From Terriglobales bacterium (GTDB lineage: Bacteria; Acidobacteriota; Terriglobia; Terriglobales; Acidobacteriaceae), in NCBI GenBank assembly GCA_049589215.1, contig JBAWAI010000584.1:1-60865 (forward strand): a stretch of 60,865 nt of DNA, given 5' to 3'. Below are positions 10,042-20,013 of this stretch, piece after piece. The position numbers and the translations under genes are program-made. Position 1 is the stretch's first letter. The number at the start of each line of letters is the position of its first letter. The notes below the pieces were generated by a model, which had not been told where the DNA came from, did not search any database, and saw only the letters and a program-made list of their open reading frames with translations.

Positions 10042-11102
10042 GATCCTTCCGATGACACCATGAGTGCGCCGATAGGATGCTCAGGGGTGCACTCGCGCCC
10101 AAACAGTTTACACTGATGCGGTTTGAGCACACCTTTGAGGACTTCTCCACACTGCGCGGCTTGCGGGTCGGTCACCCGAATGCCGGGTACCTGGAAGCGT
10201 TGTTCGGCGTCGAACTCGGCATGCTTGTCGTTGATGCGAAGCGCCGACTGCGAGATGAACCCGAGGCCTCTCCACTCGAAGTACGGACGTAACTCGAACA
10301 CTTCGGCCATGGCTTTGAGGGCGGCGCGGTTGCCCTCCCAGGGAACTACGCGCTTGTATTGATTTTCGACTTTGGCCTCGCCGGCTTTCAGCTGACGCAG
10401 CAGCATGACGATGGATTGCAGCATGTCGAGCGGCTCGAAGCCGGAGACGACGATGGGCTTGCGCTCGTTGCGAGCGATCCACTCATAGGGACGACAACCG
10501 ATGACGGTGGAGACGTGGCCGGGACCGATGAAGGCGTCGAGGCGCATGTCGGGAGAATCGAGAATAGCCCGGATCGCGGGAATGATCGTGACGTGATTGC
10601 AGAAGACGGAGAAATTGTGAACGCCTTCGGAGCGGGCGCGCATCATGGTGAGAGCGGTGGAGGGCGCGGTGGTTTCAAAGCCGATAGCAAAAAACATAAC
10701 GTGCTTTTCGGGATTGAGGCGGGCGAGCTTAAGTGCGTCAGAGGGTGAATAGACGATGCGAACGTCCATGCCGCGGGCCTTGTGTTCAAGCGGGCTGCCG
10801 TGAGTACCGGGGACGCGCATCATGTCGCCGAAGGCGGCGAAGATAACGTTGGGGTCGCCCGCGACGGCGAGGCCGTCATCGATGCGGCCCATGGGAAGGA
10901 CGCAGACGGGGCAGCCGGGGCCGTGAATCAGTTCGATATTTTCCGGGAGGATATCTTTGAGGCCGAAGCGGTAGATGGCGTGAGTGTGACCGCCGCAGAC
11001 TTCCATCATGCGGTAATGGCGGTCGGTACCGGCGAGGCGACGGATTTCATCGGCGGTCTTTGAGATCAATTCGGGCTGGCGGAATTCGTCGACGAATTTC
11101 AT
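9975..11102 (-). CDS. hypD: Hydrogenase maturation protein HypD
   Basis: MKFVDEFR start, plus CGGHTHAI, GPGCPVCV, FAIGFETT and PGHVS motifs. ATG 11102 is chosen over the longer ORF-track start. Confidence 0.9.
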   Translation of the reverse strand: MKFVDEFRQPELISKTADEIRRLAGTDRHYRMMEVCGGHTHAIYRFGLKDILPENIELIHGPGCPVCVLPMGRIDDGLAVAGDPNVIFAAFGDMMRVPGTHGSPLEHKARGMDVRIVYSPSDALKLARLNPEKHVMFFAIGFETTAPSTALTMMRARSEGVHNFSVFCNHVTIIPAIRAILDSPDMRLDAFIGPGHVSTVIGCRPYEWIARNERKPIVVSGFEPLDMLQSIVMLLRQLKAGEAKVENQYKRVVPWEGNRAALKAMAEVFELRPYFEWRGLGFISQSALRINDKHAEFDAEQRFQVPGIRVTDPQAAQCGEVLKGVLKPHQCKLFGRECTPEHPIGALMVSSEGSCAAYHNYEHRKAVMVSLSSVA

Positions 11103-11154
11103 GCAGCTTGGCTCCGGGGTTCCGTACTGCACATCCGAGACTGCCGGGTAGGAT

Positions 11155-11433
11155 TCAATTGATATCCTCCAGCCCGTAGCCTCGAACTTCCTGCATTGCT
11201 CCGTCAATCTCTCCCAGCATTCTGAGAGTATCCATCTGGTCGGCGGCGTCCTGTTCGCTGATCTTGCTCATGGCGAAGCCGACGTGAACGAGCACCCAGT
11301 CGCCGCGCACGGGCTTATCGTCGGCCAAGAGACCAAGGTCGATTCTGCGGCGCACGCCGACTACCTCGACGACGGCAGAGTCCTGGTTGTCGGGAGAAAT
11401 CTCGACAATCTTTCCGGGTATGGCTAGACACAT
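11155..11433 (-). CDS. hypC: Hydrogenase assembly chaperone HypC/HupF
   Basis: MCLAIPGKIVEI N-terminus; 92 aa. Confidence 0.9.
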   Translation of the reverse strand: MCLAIPGKIVEISPDNQDSAVVEVVGVRRRIDLGLLADDKPVRGDWVLVHVGFAMSKISEQDAADQMDTLRMLGEIDGAMQEVRGYGLEDIN

Positions 11434-11475
11434 TCGGCATCCTCCGTCGTGGTTGAACTCATTTTGCGCTGCCGG

Positions 11476-12069
11476 TCAAGGTTGCTTCCTCGCTAAAATT
11501 GCGAAAGAGAGTTTTATTTCGTCTTTGAGTTTGACGGTGCCGCCAGCGGCGGTTACCGGCTGAATTTCATAATCGCTCAGGCGGACGGAAAAATCTCCGG
11601 ACGCGCGGAGCGTATCGCCGTTTATGGAGACCCGCGTGGAGACTGGTTGACCGCGCTTGACTCCGTGCATTGTGAGATCGCCGGCGAGCGCGACCCAGTA
11701 TTGGCCTTCTCCGGTTTTGCTGGCGATGACGCTGGAACACTCGTAGACGATATCGGGAAAAGAGTCGACTTCCAAAACCTCGTCGTGCATGCGACGGTTG
11801 ATTTCGTCGTGATCTTTAGCGCTGATATCGTCGGTATCGTTGAGAGATGCCGCGTGAATTATCATGCGCAGCGAACTTTGCTCGAGTGCGTCGGGATTGA
11901 GAAGGATTTCACCCTCGAAATCAGGGAGTTCGATGGTTGGACTGTGAGCGAACGCGGAAAGCATTCCGGCGGCAAACGCGCGCGCGGTAAAGGCACTCCC
12001 GTTGGTTTTAATCGAGTAGTGAAGCGTGGTTCCCTCCGGCGTTATCGCGGGTTCGGCAGCGTAATGCAC
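11476..12069 (-). CDS. YceI-like (polyisoprenoid/lipid-binding beta-barrel) protein, no signal peptide, paralog 1
   Basis: YceI-type C-terminal pattern (LTMHGVKR...ASGDFSVRLSDYEI...VKLKDEIKLSF). GTG start has GGGAGG 8 nt upstream. The N-terminus is not hydrophobic. Confidence 0.7.
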   Translation of the reverse strand: MHYAAEPAITPEGTTLHYSIKTNGSAFTARAFAAGMLSAFAHSPTIELPDFEGEILLNPDALEQSSLRMIIHAASLNDTDDISAKDHDEINRRMHDEVLEVDSFPDIVYECSSVIASKTGEGQYWVALAGDLTMHGVKRGQPVSTRVSINGDTLRASGDFSVRLSDYEIQPVTAAGGTVKLKDEIKLSFAILARKQP

Positions 12070-12113
12070 TGGAAAAACCTCCCGACAAAATGCTCCCGAA
12101 GAGAACTGCGGCT

Positions 12114-12683
12114 CTACTCCGGCTTGCGAGCGACTATGTAAAACGTAAATTTCAGCTCGTCCTGAAGCTTTAAAGAACCGCCGGCAATCGAGGCGATCCG
12201 AATGTCGTAATCGCTTTGCAACAGCGTGAACGTCCCAAAAACGCGAGCCGTATCAATCCCCATAGCCGCTTGAGCTTCGAAGCCTAAGTCGCTGGAAACT
12301 CCGTGCAGCATCAATCTACCACTCACCTTGATACGGTAAAGATCGTCTTTCAGTTTCTCAGCCGCTATGCCGGTGCTCTCGTACGCGACCTCCGGGAAAC
12401 GCTGCGTTTCCAGCACCTCCTTATTCATCACACGATGGATTTCGCGTCGATCGTCATCGCGTAACTCATCTAGAACTTCGAGGGATGCGGCTTTCACCCG
12501 GACCCGGAGAGAGGCATCCTGCAGCTTATTTGATGACATCTGAACCTCGCCCGTCCAATCGCGAATCGCAATCTTCGGGCTATGTGCGACAGCCGCGATC
12601 AGCCCGCTCGCGAAAGCCTGCACAACAAACTGGCTCGCCCTTGTATCAGCCGAGTAACAAATTCTGTCAGCACCGGTCGCCAT
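12114..12683 (-). CDS. YceI-like protein, no signal peptide, paralog 2
   Basis: Aligns by eye with paralog 1 (AFASGLIAAVAHSP / AFAAGMLSAFAHSP; LMLHGVS...TFTLLQSDYDI...LKLQDELKFTF). ATG 12683 has GGAGG 8 nt upstream; the ORF-track start 12737 lacks an SD. Confidence 0.7.
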   Translation of the reverse strand: MATGADRICYSADTRASQFVVQAFASGLIAAVAHSPKIAIRDWTGEVQMSSNKLQDASLRVRVKAASLEVLDELRDDDRREIHRVMNKEVLETQRFPEVAYESTGIAAEKLKDDLYRIKVSGRLMLHGVSSDLGFEAQAAMGIDTARVFGTFTLLQSDYDIRIASIAGGSLKLQDELKFTFYIVARKPE

Positions 12684-12768
12684 CGAAGTAACCTCCGGGC
12701 CCTGAGAATAACATGCAAAAGCAGTCCCGTAACTCATCCGATTAATGCGATCCGTCCTGACCAGCTTG

Positions 12769-12972
12769 TTACATCGAGCGTAACTTCAAGTAACGATCGA
12801 GATCAGGCAACGCGCCTTGAGCCAGATCTCCCAGGCCGAACTGGCCGAGATAGCGTTTCGCGATGGGATTGGAAAGAATCAGGCCCGCCCCGAAAACGAT
12901 AAGTGCCACACCGCTAAGCATGAAGAGCGTGTCTCTGTCACTGAAGTGACCGTCACCATTGTCCATTGCCAC
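12769..12972 (-). CDS. Small single-pass membrane protein (67 aa)
   Basis: AAGGAGA lies 5 nt upstream of the GTG start. One hydrophobic helix (LFMLSGVALIVFGAGLILS). The gene sits between operon neighbours with 27-31 nt gaps. Confidence 0.6.
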   Translation of the reverse strand: MAMDNGDGHFSDRDTLFMLSGVALIVFGAGLILSNPIAKRYLGQFGLGDLAQGALPDLDRYLKLRSM

Positions 12973-12999
12973 GGCAGTCTCCTTTTACCACTTGAGAAG

Positions 13000-13869
13000 T
13001 TACTGGGTTGAACAGTTACCGACTGAAGAGTTACCGACTGAACCAGACTTATGTTTGTACAGAACCTTGTCGATCAACGATTTTACGAGTTTCACTGCCA
13101 CATCCACTGCGGCCTCAACGGCCGCGCTGAGCCCCATCTGACCTTCTTCGCCGCCGAGAGTTTCAGGTTCGCAACCGACGAGCAGAATATTCTTGACTTC
13201 GATGTTCATTGCCCGGGCCATGCGAAGCACGCTCATCGGATTCATGGAGTGCGCTTCGACGGTGGCCGGCGCGGCTGCGGAATCGTCAAGCGATTTCAAG
13301 TCGGGCTCAATAACGGAAAGCGTGCCAGCGGGCTGGCCGTGGGGGCAGGCGTCGACCAGAATGGTGGTTTCGTAGCCATCCTGCAGAGCGTAAGCGAGAT
13401 CGAAGCCGCGAATGCCGAAGTCGGTGACGCAGACTTCCGCGGGAAGTTCGAGGGCGGCGAGACGGCGTGCAACTTCGACACCGAAGGCGTCGTCACCGAG
13501 GAAGATGTTGCCGATTCCGGCGACCAGGATCGTGGGCTTTTGGACGGTTGAGACCGGCGGAAACTGGTCGGGTGGGAGCGGCTCGACTTCTTCCGCATCG
13601 AAAAAGAAGCGATGACCGGGCTGGCGAAGCATGCCCATGTCGCGGCCGGGATCCTGATCGAGGACCACACAGACGTGCTGCTTGCCTTCGTAGTCCTGCT
13701 CGATGCATTCGATGGTGGCAATCTGACCGGCGAGGGCGATGTCCATTACATCGCCGCCTTTGCGGGGATGAAGACGCACGCGGGATCCCTGGCGGACTGC
13801 GACGCCGGAAATTTCGAGATGATCGAGAGGAGTTTTTTCTTCGAGGAGTTGCCATTCCCATTCATTCAT
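13000..13869 (-). CDS. [NiFe]-hydrogenase maturation endopeptidase (HupD/HyaD family) with a ~100-aa N-terminal extension
   Basis: Protease core ILVAGIGNIFLGDDAFGVEVA...DFGIRGFDLAYAL...ILVDA starts near residue 115. The N-terminal part is a separate domain. Confidence 0.8.
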   Translation of the reverse strand: MNEWEWQLLEEKTPLDHLEISGVAVRQGSRVRLHPRKGGDVMDIALAGQIATIECIEQDYEGKQHVCVVLDQDPGRDMGMLRQPGHRFFFDAEEVEPLPPDQFPPVSTVQKPTILVAGIGNIFLGDDAFGVEVARRLAALELPAEVCVTDFGIRGFDLAYALQDGYETTILVDACPHGQPAGTLSVIEPDLKSLDDSAAAPATVEAHSMNPMSVLRMARAMNIEVKNILLVGCEPETLGGEEGQMGLSAAVEAAVDVAVKLVKSLIDKVLYKHKSGSVGNSSVGNCSTQ

Positions 13870-17113: not shown

Positions 17114-18910
17114 TCAAGGCTGGAGACCGAACATTGGTGAATGATGTGTCTCCAGAACCTTGCCATTGCCTAAATACATGTGCACGCCGCACGGCAGGCA
17201 GGGATCGAAGCTGCGCACCGCACGCATGATATCAATTCCCTTGAACTTGTCGGGACCGTTTTCCTCGAAGATGGGCGTATTCTGCACCGCGTCTTCGTAT
17301 GGGCCCGGCGTGCCGTAGATGTCGCGCGGGTTGGCGTTCCAAGGAGTTGGCGGATAGGGGTGGTAGTTCGCGATCTTGCCTTCTTTGATGACGACATGGT
17401 GCGAGAGCACGCCGCGAACTGCTTCGTGGAAGCCGCAACCGATGGCTTCCTCGGGGACCTTGAAGTCAGTCCAGGTTTTGGTGTGTCCGGCATGCAACTC
17501 GGCGAGCGCCTTCTCCATGAAGTGCAGCGCCGCGCAGGCGGCGTAGACCTGGAAGTAGGTGCGGGCCCGGTCGCGCTCGATGGCGTTGCTCCACTTGGGA
17601 ATCTTCCATTCGAATTCGACTTCAGGTAGCGAGGTCGTTTTTGGCAGGTACATCTTCACGCTGTGACCGGTGGATTTGATATAGCCGATGTCGACGAGGC
17701 CGGCGAGCGCGGTTGCCCAGAGGCGGGCAATTGGACCGCCGCCGGTATCCATAGCGAGGTGATCGCCGGTGCGCTTGTCGAGCCACCGCGGCGACATGAC
17801 CCAGGTGTATTTGCCGCCGAAGTCGCGCTTCTGCGGACGGGGAATGGTGGTCTGGTTCCAGGGATGATTCTTATCGACCGGATTGCCGAGGGGATCGGTC
17901 TTGACGAAGGTCTGCTGATTTTTCCACTCGTCGTAATACGAACTACCGAGGAGAATGCGGATGTTCAGGTTGATATCTACCAGATCGGTGGTGACGAGCT
18001 TGCCGTCGACGACGATGCCGGGAGTGACGAACATCTTGCGGCCCCACTCCGTCATGTTCTTGTATTGATAGTCGCAATAGTCGGGATCGTTGAACGATCC
18101 CCAGCAGGCGAGCAACACACGGCGGCGTCCAACCTCTTCATAACCGGGAAGCGCTTCGTAGAAGAAGTCGAAGAGGTCGTCGTGGAGGGGAACGACCTTC
18201 TTCATGAATTCGACATACTTCATGAGGCGGACGAGATAGTCGGTGAAGAGCTGGATGGTGGGCACGGTGCCGACGCCGCCGGGATACAGCGTAGACGGGT
18301 GGACGTGGCGGCCTTCCATCAGGCAGAACATCTCGCGCGTCATGCGGCTCATGACCAAGGCTTCACGATAGAACGATCCGGTAAAGGGATTGAGCGCGGT
18401 CATGATATCGGCGATGGTGCGGAAGCCGTGCAAACTGGAATGCGGCGCGGCGGTGGATTGCGCTTTCGCCCAGACCTTCGGGTTGGTCTCCTTGACCATC
18501 TGCTCGCAGAAGTCGACACCGACCAGATTGTCCTGGAAGATATTGTGATCGAACATGTACTCGGCGGCCTCGCCGAGATTGACGATCCATTCGGCAATCG
18601 GAGGAGGCTTGATGCCGAAGGCCATATTCTGCGCGTAAGTGGCGCAGGTGGCGTGATTGTCTCCGCAGATGCCGCAGATGCGGCTGGTGATGAAGTGGGC
18701 ATCGCGCGGGTCTTTGCCCTTCATGAAGATGCTGTACCCACGGAAGATGGAAGAAGTACTGTGACACTCGACGACGTGCCGGTTTTCAAAATCGATCTTG
18801 GTAAAGATGCCCAGGCTACCCACGATACGGGTGATCGGGTCCCAGTTCATTTCCACCAGATTTCCCTTTTTGCCGGGAAGATCTTTTGTCGGTGCGGTAA
18901 TCGTGCTCAT
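17114..18910 (-). CDS. hhyL: [NiFe]-hydrogenase large subunit, group 1h (high-affinity, Hhy/actinobacterial type)
   Basis: L1 motif TSRICGICGDNH and L2 motif SFDPCLPCGVH, followed by a 21-aa C-terminal extension of the kind removed by the endopeptidase. Confidence 0.92.
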   Translation of the reverse strand: MSTITAPTKDLPGKKGNLVEMNWDPITRIVGSLGIFTKIDFENRHVVECHSTSSIFRGYSIFMKGKDPRDAHFITSRICGICGDNHATCATYAQNMAFGIKPPPIAEWIVNLGEAAEYMFDHNIFQDNLVGVDFCEQMVKETNPKVWAKAQSTAAPHSSLHGFRTIADIMTALNPFTGSFYREALVMSRMTREMFCLMEGRHVHPSTLYPGGVGTVPTIQLFTDYLVRLMKYVEFMKKVVPLHDDLFDFFYEALPGYEEVGRRRVLLACWGSFNDPDYCDYQYKNMTEWGRKMFVTPGIVVDGKLVTTDLVDINLNIRILLGSSYYDEWKNQQTFVKTDPLGNPVDKNHPWNQTTIPRPQKRDFGGKYTWVMSPRWLDKRTGDHLAMDTGGGPIARLWATALAGLVDIGYIKSTGHSVKMYLPKTTSLPEVEFEWKIPKWSNAIERDRARTYFQVYAACAALHFMEKALAELHAGHTKTWTDFKVPEEAIGCGFHEAVRGVLSHHVVIKEGKIANYHPYPPTPWNANPRDIYGTPGPYEDAVQNTPIFEENGPDKFKGIDIMRAVRSFDPCLPCGVHMYLGNGKVLETHHSPMFGLQP

Positions 18911-18948: not shown

Positions 18949-20013
18949 TTAATAGGATCGTGGATGGTATCCCGTGGTGAGTTCCGCGCGGGGATGCCGC
19001 CACTTGGGTTCCTTGTTGACGGTGGCCTGGGTCAGGGAGCGCAAAGCACGAATGGCACGGCCATAAGCGCCAACCGCTGCGCTCGACACTTTGCCGCCAG
19101 GGGGTTCGTCCATGAAAGGCATGAATTTGTCCGGAAAGCCGGGCATGGTGCAGCCGATGCAGATGCCGCCGACGTTGGGGCAGCCGCCGATTCCGGCCAT
19201 CCATCCGCGTTTGGGGACGTTGCAGTTCACTACCGGGCCCCAGCAGCCGAGTTTCACGATGCATTTGGGGGAGCCGTAGACTTCGGCGAAGTCACCCTGC
19301 TCGTAATATCCGGCGCGATCGCAACCTTCGTGCACCGTCTTGCCGAAGAGCCACGTGGGACGAAGCTGATCGTCGAGTGGAATCATGGGGGCGAGGCCGG
19401 CTACCTGATAAAGAAGATAGAGGACGGTCTCCATGAAGTTGTCGGGCTGCACCGGGCATCCGGGGACGTTGACGATGGGCAGGCCGGCTTTTGATTTCCA
19501 GTCCCAGCCGAGATAGTCGGCGAGACCCATGGCGCCGGTAGGATTGCCTTCCATGGCGTGAATGCCGCCGTAGGTGGCACAGGTGCCGCAGGCCACGATT
19601 GCCAGAGCTTTGGGAGCGAGGCGATCGATCCACTCATTGGTGGTGATGGGCTGGCCGGTTTTTGGATCGGTGCCGAGCCCGGCCCAATAACCTTCTTTCT
19701 TGATTTTCTCGTTGGGAATCGAACCTTCGACGACGAGGACGAAGGGCTCGAGTTGACCTTTTTCGGCCATGTACCAGAATTTCATGAAGTCATCTCCGTT
19801 TTCGTAGGCGAGCACGGGATTGTGGAGATGCACCTTGGGAAGTCCGGGGATTGCTCCCAGGAGAACGTCTTCAATGCTGGGCTGAGTAGCTGCGGTGACT
19901 GAAACCGAGTCTCCATCACAGCCGAGACCGGCGGTGATCCAGAGAATGTGCACCTCGGCGACAGGCGAAGGTTTTTGCGTAACCCGACCGTACGGAACCG
20001 TTTCCGCTGGCAT
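18949..20013 (-). CDS. hhyS: [NiFe]-hydrogenase small subunit, group 1h, no Tat signal
   Basis: [42 protein letters not shown] and [13 protein letters not shown] FeS-ligand blocks. No twin-arginine leader. GAGAGGAG RBS. Stop lies 38 nt upstream of the hhyL start. Confidence 0.92.
   Translation of the reverse strand: MPAETVPYGRVTQKPSPVAEVHILWITAGLGCDGDSVSVTAATQPSIEDVLLGAIPGLPKVHLHNPVLAYENGDDFMKFWYMAEKGQLEPFVLVVEGSIPNEKIKKEGYWAGLGTDPKTGQPITTNEWIDRLAPKALAIVACGTCATYGGIHAMEGNPTGAMGLADYLGWDWKSKAGLPIVNVPGCPVQPDNFMETVLYLLYQVAGLAPMIPLDDQLRPTWLFGKTVHEGCDRAGYYEQGDFAEVYGSPKCIVKLGCWGPVVNCNVPKRGWMAGIGGCPNVGGICIGCTMPGFPDKFMPFMDEPPGGKVSSAAVGAYGRAIRALRSLTQATVNKEPKWRHPRAELTTGYHPRSY

Follow-up and report, generated by a model that had tools for sequence, protein, structure and literature searches.

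Leaderless YceI-type proteins and a one-helix mini-protein linked to group 1h [NiFe]-hydrogenase clusters of Acidobacteriota and Planctomycetota: candidates for a quinone-carrying accessory module

The cargo of YceI-family lipocalins consists of octaprenyl compounds or ubiquinone-8, and a membrane cytochrome b561 is their linked or fused partner (PMC9113575). In the LcoA-BcnA system, the quinone held inside the barrel was proposed to be a redox-active cargo (PMC9113575). A second set of described proteins takes quinone from the membrane on behalf of soluble enzymes, namely HucM for the group 2a hydrogenase Huc (PMC10017518), CoxG for Mo-CO dehydrogenase (10.1101/2024.01.09.574806) and Ncp for Ndh (PMC13524794). 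Here, we describe a gene module which is located on a stretch of 60,865 nucleotides (nt) from a Terriglobales bacterium (Acidobacteriota; assembly GCA_049589215.1, contig JBAWAI010000584.1, positions 1 to 60,865); the whole of this stretch is called the window in the following. The module consists of two tandem YceI-type genes, encoding the upstream paralog YceI-A (189 amino acids (aa), 12114-12683) and the downstream paralog YceI-B (197 aa, 11476-12069), and of a gene for the 67-aa mini-protein tm67 (12769-12972). All three are encoded on the minus strand within the gene cluster of a cytosolic group 1h [NiFe]-hydrogenase (Hhy).

YceI-A and YceI-B share with the described YceI family (1Y0G, 1WUB, 5IXH, 7BWL and Helicobacter HP1286, 3HPE) the domain, a similar size and the eight-stranded barrel with one helix, which in our case is predicted; tandem paralogs are likewise known from this family (bcnA-bcnB). 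Known members are exported, whereas the two proteins of the window have no leader, and the partner indicated by genome context is a cytosolic [NiFe]-hydrogenase cluster instead of the cytochrome b561 of BcnA-type proteins. Comparison of ten operon proteins with Pfam revealed no cytochrome b family, neither adjacent nor fused, and the other operon genes were hydrogenase and hyp genes. The resemblance to LcoA-BcnA (PMC9113575) lies in a YceI barrel which is paired, and probably tethered, with a membrane component and a redox enzyme. That system is, however, periplasmic, includes a haem protein and serves in the defence against lipid peroxidation, while the window encodes cytoplasmic barrels, a cofactor-less one-helix mini-protein and a hydrogenase. 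With HucM, CoxG and Ncp the role considered below has in common that a protein encoded with a soluble oxidoreductase extracts menaquinone from the bilayer, and with CoxG also the small lipid-binding domain on a membrane anchor. The folds of these proteins, a DUF1641-type tube in HucM and Ncp and an SRPBCC domain in CoxG, are unrelated to the YceI barrel, and anchor and carrier would be separate polypeptides in the window, unlike in the quinone-extraction partners. Moreover, the functions of HucM, CoxG and Ncp were shown by structures and lipidomics, whereas the role suggested for the module of the window is deduced from genes and a predicted fold.

A preliminary description of the window had claimed a YceI-type fold for both proteins, and profile searches as well as structure prediction agree with it. 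Pfam assigned YceI-B and YceI-A to the YceI family (PF04264) with E-values of 1.4e-16 and 8.6e-16, respectively (61.6 and 59.1 bits at a cut-off of 23.7), and to no other family; the two paralogs are 38% identical over the full length. Positions of about 1-20 of the Pfam profile were left unaligned, and in their place the proteins carry an A-H-S/N-P segment with a nearly invariant His-x-Pro. The AlphaFold2 model of YceI-A, for which 16 diverse homologs served as input, reached a predicted local distance difference test (pLDDT) value of 85 and a predicted template modelling score (pTM) of 0.78 and revealed a barrel of antiparallel strands together with one long helix. Foldseek matched this model to BcnA (5ixh), TT1927b (1wub), PA0423 (7bwl) and E. 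coli YceI (1y0g) at a probability of 1.0, and the target-normalised template modelling scores were 0.75-0.82. All matches at E-values up to 0.001 were YceI-type barrels, the best being BcnA, and no SRPBCC structure was among them. In addition, a sequence profile of the subfamily recovered solved YceI structures with E-values from 6e-10 to 5e-5. On the basis of the predicted structure, YceI-A is an eight-stranded barrel of the YceI/bacterial-lipocalin type.

The lack of a signal peptide, also claimed beforehand, was confirmed on the translated N-termini of both proteins (MATGADRICYSADTRASQ... and MHYAAEPAITPEGTTLHY...), which are without a hydrophobic leader. The open frame of YceI-A extends to position 12737, upstream of the conserved start at 12683, and the possible extension of 18 aa is likewise free of a leader. 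Neither a signal peptide nor a lipobox was found in YceI-A, YceI-B or their orthologs, which sets them apart from the exported, characterised YceI members. A Tat (twin-arginine) leader is also absent from the translated sequence of the small hydrogenase subunit HhyS. As none of the three proteins has a leader, the enzyme and the barrels share the cytoplasm.

Exported relatives were observed as well. Exported or lipoprotein forms of about 230 aa are represented by P0126, P0130, P0179 and P0238, while P0188, P0224, P0232, P0245 and P0264 (580-650 aa) and the protein encoded at L217:6001-7842 are secreted and have a large N-terminal region of unassigned type. The proteins of 580-650 aa end in a YceI domain of the same subfamily (E-values of about 1e-45 to 1e-53), so that close kin of the leaderless clade linked to hydrogenases are exported.

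The synteny of YceI-like genes in hhy clusters, a point raised in the preliminary description, was surveyed from three sides and revealed a specific linkage in Acidobacteriota and Planctomycetota. Among 80 loci retrieved with the large hydrogenase subunit HhyL alone as seed, 56 carried YceI within the cluster, either as a single gene or as a pair; the loci without YceI comprised five scattered Terriglobia, six Acidobacteriaceae with a second cluster type (type 2) and clusters of Burkholderiales and Steroidobacteraceae. An even sample of 251 Acidobacteriota genomes included 11 with a group 1h hhyL. Eight of these were assessable besides the genome of the window: six, from four families, had a YceI gene 4-6 kilobases (kb) downstream of hhyL on the same contig, and the remaining two, both of the window's own family, had none. 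When divergent leaderless YceI sequences were the only seeds, 79 of the 80 loci obtained were located inside hhy clusters and the last one directly after hypF. Thus, in the loci sampled, the leaderless YceI clade occurs only with hydrogenase genes. In the metagenome representatives P0165 and P0244, the YceI gene is followed by a gene for a HycI-type protease and, in P0244, then by hypA.

The only clade member found outside an hhy cluster belongs to a Planctomycetaceae locus (L101:7679-9974), in which hypF is split in two overlapping frames of 582 and 472 aa; the leaderless YceI gene follows directly and precedes genes for a P-II protein and a PAS histidine kinase. Complete clusters of the Terriglobia type, with HhyL 88-89% identical, the hhyS2-kinase-regulator unit, the long mini-protein and YceI, were also encountered in loci labelled Betaproteobacteria bacterium (L137) and Verrucomicrobiia (L157/L198), which are either wrongly binned contigs or the result of a recent transfer of the whole cluster.

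More than 100 genomes have retained homologous genes in this place, so the arrangement is more than chance; the gene order differs between lineages. Terriglobia have hupD (the protease gene), the mini-protein gene, one or two copies of YceI and hypC. In Planctomycetia, a single YceI gene is found between the gene of a 364-aa protein and hupD or one gene further up, and Tepidisphaerales (Phycisphaerae) have the long mini-protein first, followed by YceI, hupD, the short mini-protein and hypA. The mini-protein and YceI genes adjoin the protease gene in every lineage examined. What speaks most strongly for a functional link with the hydrogenase is that YceI remained in its cluster through such rearrangements in two phyla.

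The mini-protein tm67 has an acidic N-terminus, one transmembrane helix, a linker and the C-terminal motif PDLDRYLKLRSM; AlphaFold2 predicted with confidence a helix of residues 7-34 and, in addition, shorter helices of residues 36-44 and 48-66. With Pfam DUF6893 (PF21833) it aligned only over residues 55-67, the last 13, and its score of 24.3 bits was just below the cut-off of 24.6. The DUF6893 profile, applied to the genomes of relatives, matched other copies and missed tm67 of the window, and purpose-built hidden Markov models (HMMs) were needed. In a jackhmmer search and with an HMM based on short forms, tm67 was connected to short forms across phyla, carried by Blastocatellia, type-2 Acidobacteriaceae, Planctomycetota, Burkholderiales, a Mycobacterium intracellulare plasmid and Kitasatospora. 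We defined the family in this analysis by a transmembrane helix, the terminal motif and a place beside the group 1h protease gene, all of which tm67 has. Its members possess one hydrophobic helix, end in PD-x2-[RK]-Y-[LIM]-[KR]-[IL]-x2-M and occurred in 158 of 175 loci, usually directly downstream of the protease gene.

DUF6893 proteins resemble tm67 in the single helix, the terminal motif and the place beside the group 1h protease gene, but their short forms lack the insert of 20-35 aa (about 23) which tm67 carries between helix and motif, and the long form was found only with YceI. Of 109 distinct long forms, 108 are encoded at most 400 nt upstream of a YceI gene, and the exception (L079) represents a recent loss of YceI. 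Short forms were distributed differently: 16 occurred in clusters without YceI, 29 elsewhere in clusters with a long form or YceI and two adjoining YceI, and several clusters hold both forms. The assumption that the mini-protein as such is specific to YceI clusters was therefore rejected, as this holds for the long form only, whereas the short form is found with or without YceI. Judged from these sequence relationships, tm67 is not a novel gene, and the long form is a YceI-coupled specialisation of a core group 1h mini-protein. The acidic N-terminus and the net positive tail of tm67 suggest a topology with the N-terminus outside and the C-terminus inside. Natural fusions of mini-protein and YceI were sought and none was found.

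Several further frames of this family were noted. In the plasmid pHG1 of Cupriavidus necator H16, a DUF6893-like frame of about 33 codons (MKGFLKYLVLPALVVALLANIKDIRRYIRIRSM) is situated between the protease gene and hypF (L097:17570-17797; about 66750-66850 of the record) and is missing from the PLSDB gene table. Equivalent frames exist in the plasmid clusters of M. intracellulare and Kitasatospora (L095:17163-17381 and L096, ending at 17634). DUF6893-type frames away from the protease gene occur in the genome of the window (G000:C471:1-87 and G000:C318:24362-24454) and, in other Terriglobia, upstream of hhyS or of an hhyS paralog (L023:5862-5999, L036:4934-5041 and, on the opposite strand, L069:6776-6883).

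In a tree of 180 distinct YceI sequences, the first-position copies formed one clade (38 rows, support 94), while the second-position copies of the YceI-B type grouped with the single-copy genes of Terriglobia and the Planctomycetota sequences formed a clade of their own. YceI-B is the type retained in single-copy clusters. The tree therefore indicates one old A/B duplication with later, repeated loss of YceI-A, and many independent duplications were rejected on these grounds. Both paralogs are under purifying selection, with median pairwise ratios of non-synonymous to synonymous substitutions (dN/dS) of 0.17 for YceI-A and 0.13 for YceI-B at synonymous sites near saturation. They evolve far faster than the hydrogenase, as the same genome pairs showed 68-76% identity for YceI and 97% for HhyL. 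Transcript fragments were detected in two rhizosphere metatranscriptome runs, the short contigs of which are identical to the window in portions of tm67, hupD, YceI-B and hypC; tm67 (12761-12939) and hupD were matched in both runs and YceI-B (11703-11853) and hypC in one, at a very low depth at which carry-over of DNA is possible.

The fold and the known ligands of YceI proteins, the LcoA-BcnA precedent, the quinone extractors and the linkage to hydrogenase genes make a quinone or isoprenoid carrier the best-supported reading of these results. We propose tentatively, and with somewhat less than an even chance of being right, that the genes encode an accessory module which is specific to certain lineages and serves the cytosolic group 1h hydrogenase; its barrels would shuttle a quinone or another isoprenoid. 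The mini-protein would reside in the cytoplasmic membrane with its N-terminus out and its C-terminal tail in, and YceI-A and YceI-B would be cytoplasmic, lipocalin-like barrels holding a hydrophobic isoprenoid, most likely menaquinone or menaquinol. Through its long tail, the mini-protein would keep the barrels at the membrane surface, and the C-terminal motif, which is common to the short mini-protein, may address the same partner, presumably the hydrogenase complex. The barrels could then serve as quinone carriers that link the bilayer with the soluble enzyme, or keep a local pool of quinone beside it. Oxidation of trace H2 would be better coupled to the respiratory chain, which would be helpful but not essential. 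Ligand, membrane topology, docking and electron transfer are the parts of this mechanism that we infer. A more detailed version appears doubtful to us: the short mini-protein would be a general group 1h membrane anchor, and in Acidobacteriota and Planctomycetota the long form would in addition dock a YceI-A/B heterodimer, which lifts menaquinone from the bilayer and offers it to HhyS at its distal iron-sulfur cluster. Besides the HucM tube and the CoxG shuttle, quinone reduction away from the membrane would then have evolved independently for a third time.

A number of observations weigh against a quinone carrier. As the barrels are acidic (net charges of -2 and -9), they have no obvious affinity on their own for anionic membranes, and YceI proteins also have ligands other than quinones, such as antibiotics and a fatty amide. 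The YceI genes are located beside protease and hyp genes instead of hhySL, a position that would suit a role in maturation too. No HhyS residue was found that separates 120 clusters with YceI from 20 without. YceI is absent from the hhy clusters of M. intracellulare, Kitasatospora sp., C. necator H16 and Methylocystis parvus, which have the same core genes, and from the Burkholderiales clusters examined. Even among Terriglobia, three loci with HhyL 87-92% identical to that of the window (L023, L036 and L060) have just 110-136 nt between hupD and hypC and represent clean deletions of YceI and mini-protein in an otherwise intact cluster. In L068 and L079, YceI is gone and the mini-protein is kept, and in L012 and L016, with 97% identical HhyL, YceI-A is reduced to its last 60 codons or so; this paralog was lost or truncated repeatedly. 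Finally, one acidobacterial cluster type, the type 2 represented by eight distinct HhyL sequences, is wholly without YceI.

The preliminary description had suggested a quinone-shuttling or membrane-tethering module for a cytosolic Hhy enzyme. The YceI fold, the absent leaders and the linkage to the hydrogenase stood up. The module is missing from the clusters of Actinomycetota (two plasmid loci and literature) and Proteobacteria examined and is therefore no general acceptor route of group 1h enzymes. Absence from the hhy clusters of close relatives, which it had named as evidence against the idea, was found in part, with three relatives devoid of both genes and YceI-A decaying at 97% HhyL identity, while the genes are kept elsewhere. 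The module is dispensable and lineage-specific. In an HhyL tree rooted with Actinomycetota, the Proteobacteria, which are without YceI, branch first, and a single group of 139 rows (support 92) comprises all YceI clusters. As this group also includes the type-2 clade and five single losses, at least seven state changes are required. With the root of the tree assumed in this way, a single gain of YceI followed by losses is the simplest history.

Type-2 clusters were observed in L073 (a plasmid of Tunturiibacter lichenicola), L070, L075, L076, L078 and L082. They have the order hypCDE, hhySL, core genes, hupD, short mini-protein and hypAB, and the hhyS2-kinase-regulator unit was not seen in the stretch examined. 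One type-2 copy is located on a plasmid of 756 kb. L070 and L148 derive from the same metagenome-assembled genome, and one genome can thus hold both cluster types.

An alternative which we regard as unlikely is a role at a late stage of Hhy biogenesis, in which barrels and mini-protein would work together with the HupD-type protease and have no part in electron transfer; a subunit or intermediate might be held at the membrane, or a hydrophobic segment chaperoned. In every lineage the YceI and mini-protein genes adjoin the protease gene among hyp genes and not hhySL, the sole YceI gene outside an hhy cluster follows hypF, and nearly all group 1h clusters have the short mini-protein gene behind that of the protease. 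However, the order of genes transcribed together indicates only weakly at which stage a protein acts. Furthermore, the YceI fold is that of a ligand-carrying, lipocalin-like barrel, for which we know of no chaperone precedent, and C. necator and Streptomyces have active Hhy enzymes with clusters devoid of YceI.

The similarity of the YceI-A model to BcnA, its best structural match, leads to a further and rather improbable explanation, a cytoplasmic counterpart of BcnA-LcoA in the control of lipid damage. At the inner leaflet, the barrels would contain a quinol or trap lipid peroxyl radicals or other toxic species of lipophilic nature, and the hydrogenase would supply the reducing power during starvation in air. 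BcnA-type YceI lipocalins together with a membrane redox partner do guard membranes from lipid peroxidation (PMC9113575), Hhy works in air in starving cells, and the loss of the module in some lineages fits a protective, non-essential role. The known system is, however, periplasmic and includes a cytochrome b561, which the operon does not encode. Nothing ties group 1h enzymes to the detoxification of peroxides or radicals, and a general protective protein would not be expected in hydrogenase clusters only.

The hhyS2-kinase-regulator unit is present upstream in most YceI-bearing clusters of Terriglobia, which is compatible with barrels that sense a ligand and report the state of the lipid or quinone pool to the HhyS paralog, the PAS kinase and the NarL-type regulator, or modulate the enzyme. 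This seems quite improbable to us, as clusters of Planctomycetota and Blastocatellia have YceI without the regulatory unit in the stretch examined, the barrels contain neither a DNA-binding nor a signalling domain, and the YceI genes are 7 kb away from the regulator genes, inside the maturation block. Lastly, the repeated losses and the fast evolution relative to HhyL would fit a YceI gene that was inserted once into an ancestral cluster and kept without a hydrogenase-related function, but this is very improbable in view of its retention under purifying selection in more than 100 distinct clusters of two phyla, the linkage that survives relocation within the cluster, the co-evolved, dedicated form of the mini-protein and the fact that no member of the leaderless clade was found away from hydrogenase genes in the loci sampled.

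The hydrogenase genes of the window were assigned to group 1h with Pfam and NCBIfam, based on HhyL and HhyS orthologs and on the NifU-like, DUF5947, DUF6084, 364-aa and protease proteins. The structural genes of the cytosolic enzyme, hhyS (18949-20013) and hhyL (17114-18910), match NCBIfam hydrogenase subunits and are encoded on the minus strand like all genes of the operon listed here. The identity of HhyL is 83% with the large subunit of the actinobacterial-type hydrogenase of C. necator H16 pHG1 and 72-83% with those of plasmid-borne clusters with the same gene set in Cupriavidus, Methylocystis, Mycobacterium and Streptomycetaceae. The operon begins with hhyS, hhyL and the genes of the NifU-like, DUF5947, DUF6084 and 364-aa proteins and of the HupD-type maturation endopeptidase (13000-13869; Pfam HycI and TIGR00072), the upstream neighbour of the module. 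Downstream of YceI-B follow hypC (11155-11433; identified by its translation and kept in position across loci), hypD, hypE, a double-SIS gene, a glutaredoxin-like gene, hypA and hypB.

Open reading frames and Pfam matches confirmed the tandem position of the YceI paralogs between maturation protease and hypC as previously described, together with their strong Shine-Dalgarno sites: YceI-A starts with ATG and has GGAGG 8 nt upstream, and YceI-B starts with GTG and has GGGAGG at the same distance. The 67-aa single-helix protein ahead of the pair, said to have an AAGGAGA ribosome binding site, likewise proved correct; its frame starts with GTG, 6 nt downstream of AAGGAG. The gaps of 42-44 nt apply to YceI-A/YceI-B (44 nt) and YceI-B/hypC (42 nt) but not to the remaining spacers, which measure 27 nt (hupD/mini-protein) and 85 nt (mini-protein/YceI-A). 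A scan of positions 10900-13300 for promoters and terminators revealed nothing beyond chance, which fits co-transcription without proving it. The spacer of 44 nt contains a hairpin, GTTCTC-TTC-GGGAGC followed by ATTTTGT (12092-12106, minus strand), which is within chance expectation.

The protease of the window carries an extra N-terminal domain of about 110 aa. In C. necator, this region is part of the preceding protein (L097:15686-17664), with sizes of 476 aa for that protein and 183 aa for the protease compared to 364 and 289 aa in the window. In Tepidisphaerales, its counterpart is encoded ahead of mini-protein and YceI (L182:8362-8661). The domain is mobile, exactly where the YceI module is inserted.

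A comparison of Acidobacteria by Eichorst et al. (2018) depicts extra, unnamed 'hypothetical' genes in hhy clusters (PMC5900883). In the literature searched, neither YceI, 'polyisoprenoid-binding protein' nor DUF6893 was linked to group 1h hydrogenases, and the DUF6893 family was not mentioned at all. From their sequences, the proteins described here appear to be a branch of the YceI lipocalins which is cytoplasmic, dedicated to hydrogenases and provided with a membrane partner of its own; this branch is not described in this literature. Group 1h hydrogenases are a main biological sink for atmospheric H2 and help dominant soil phyla to survive. Two clonable candidates are now at hand for the access of these soluble enzymes, in which a cytochrome b subunit is lacking, to the membrane and its quinones: the leaderless YceI lipocalins of Acidobacteriota and Planctomycetota and the one-helix mini-protein family of almost all group 1h clusters. 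Should the barrels carry no menaquinone, their strict linkage would still mark an unknown step in Hhy biology. If they do carry it, the theme of quinone extraction known from Huc, CO dehydrogenase and Ndh would be extended to a new fold, and the YceI family would obtain its first cytoplasmic function.

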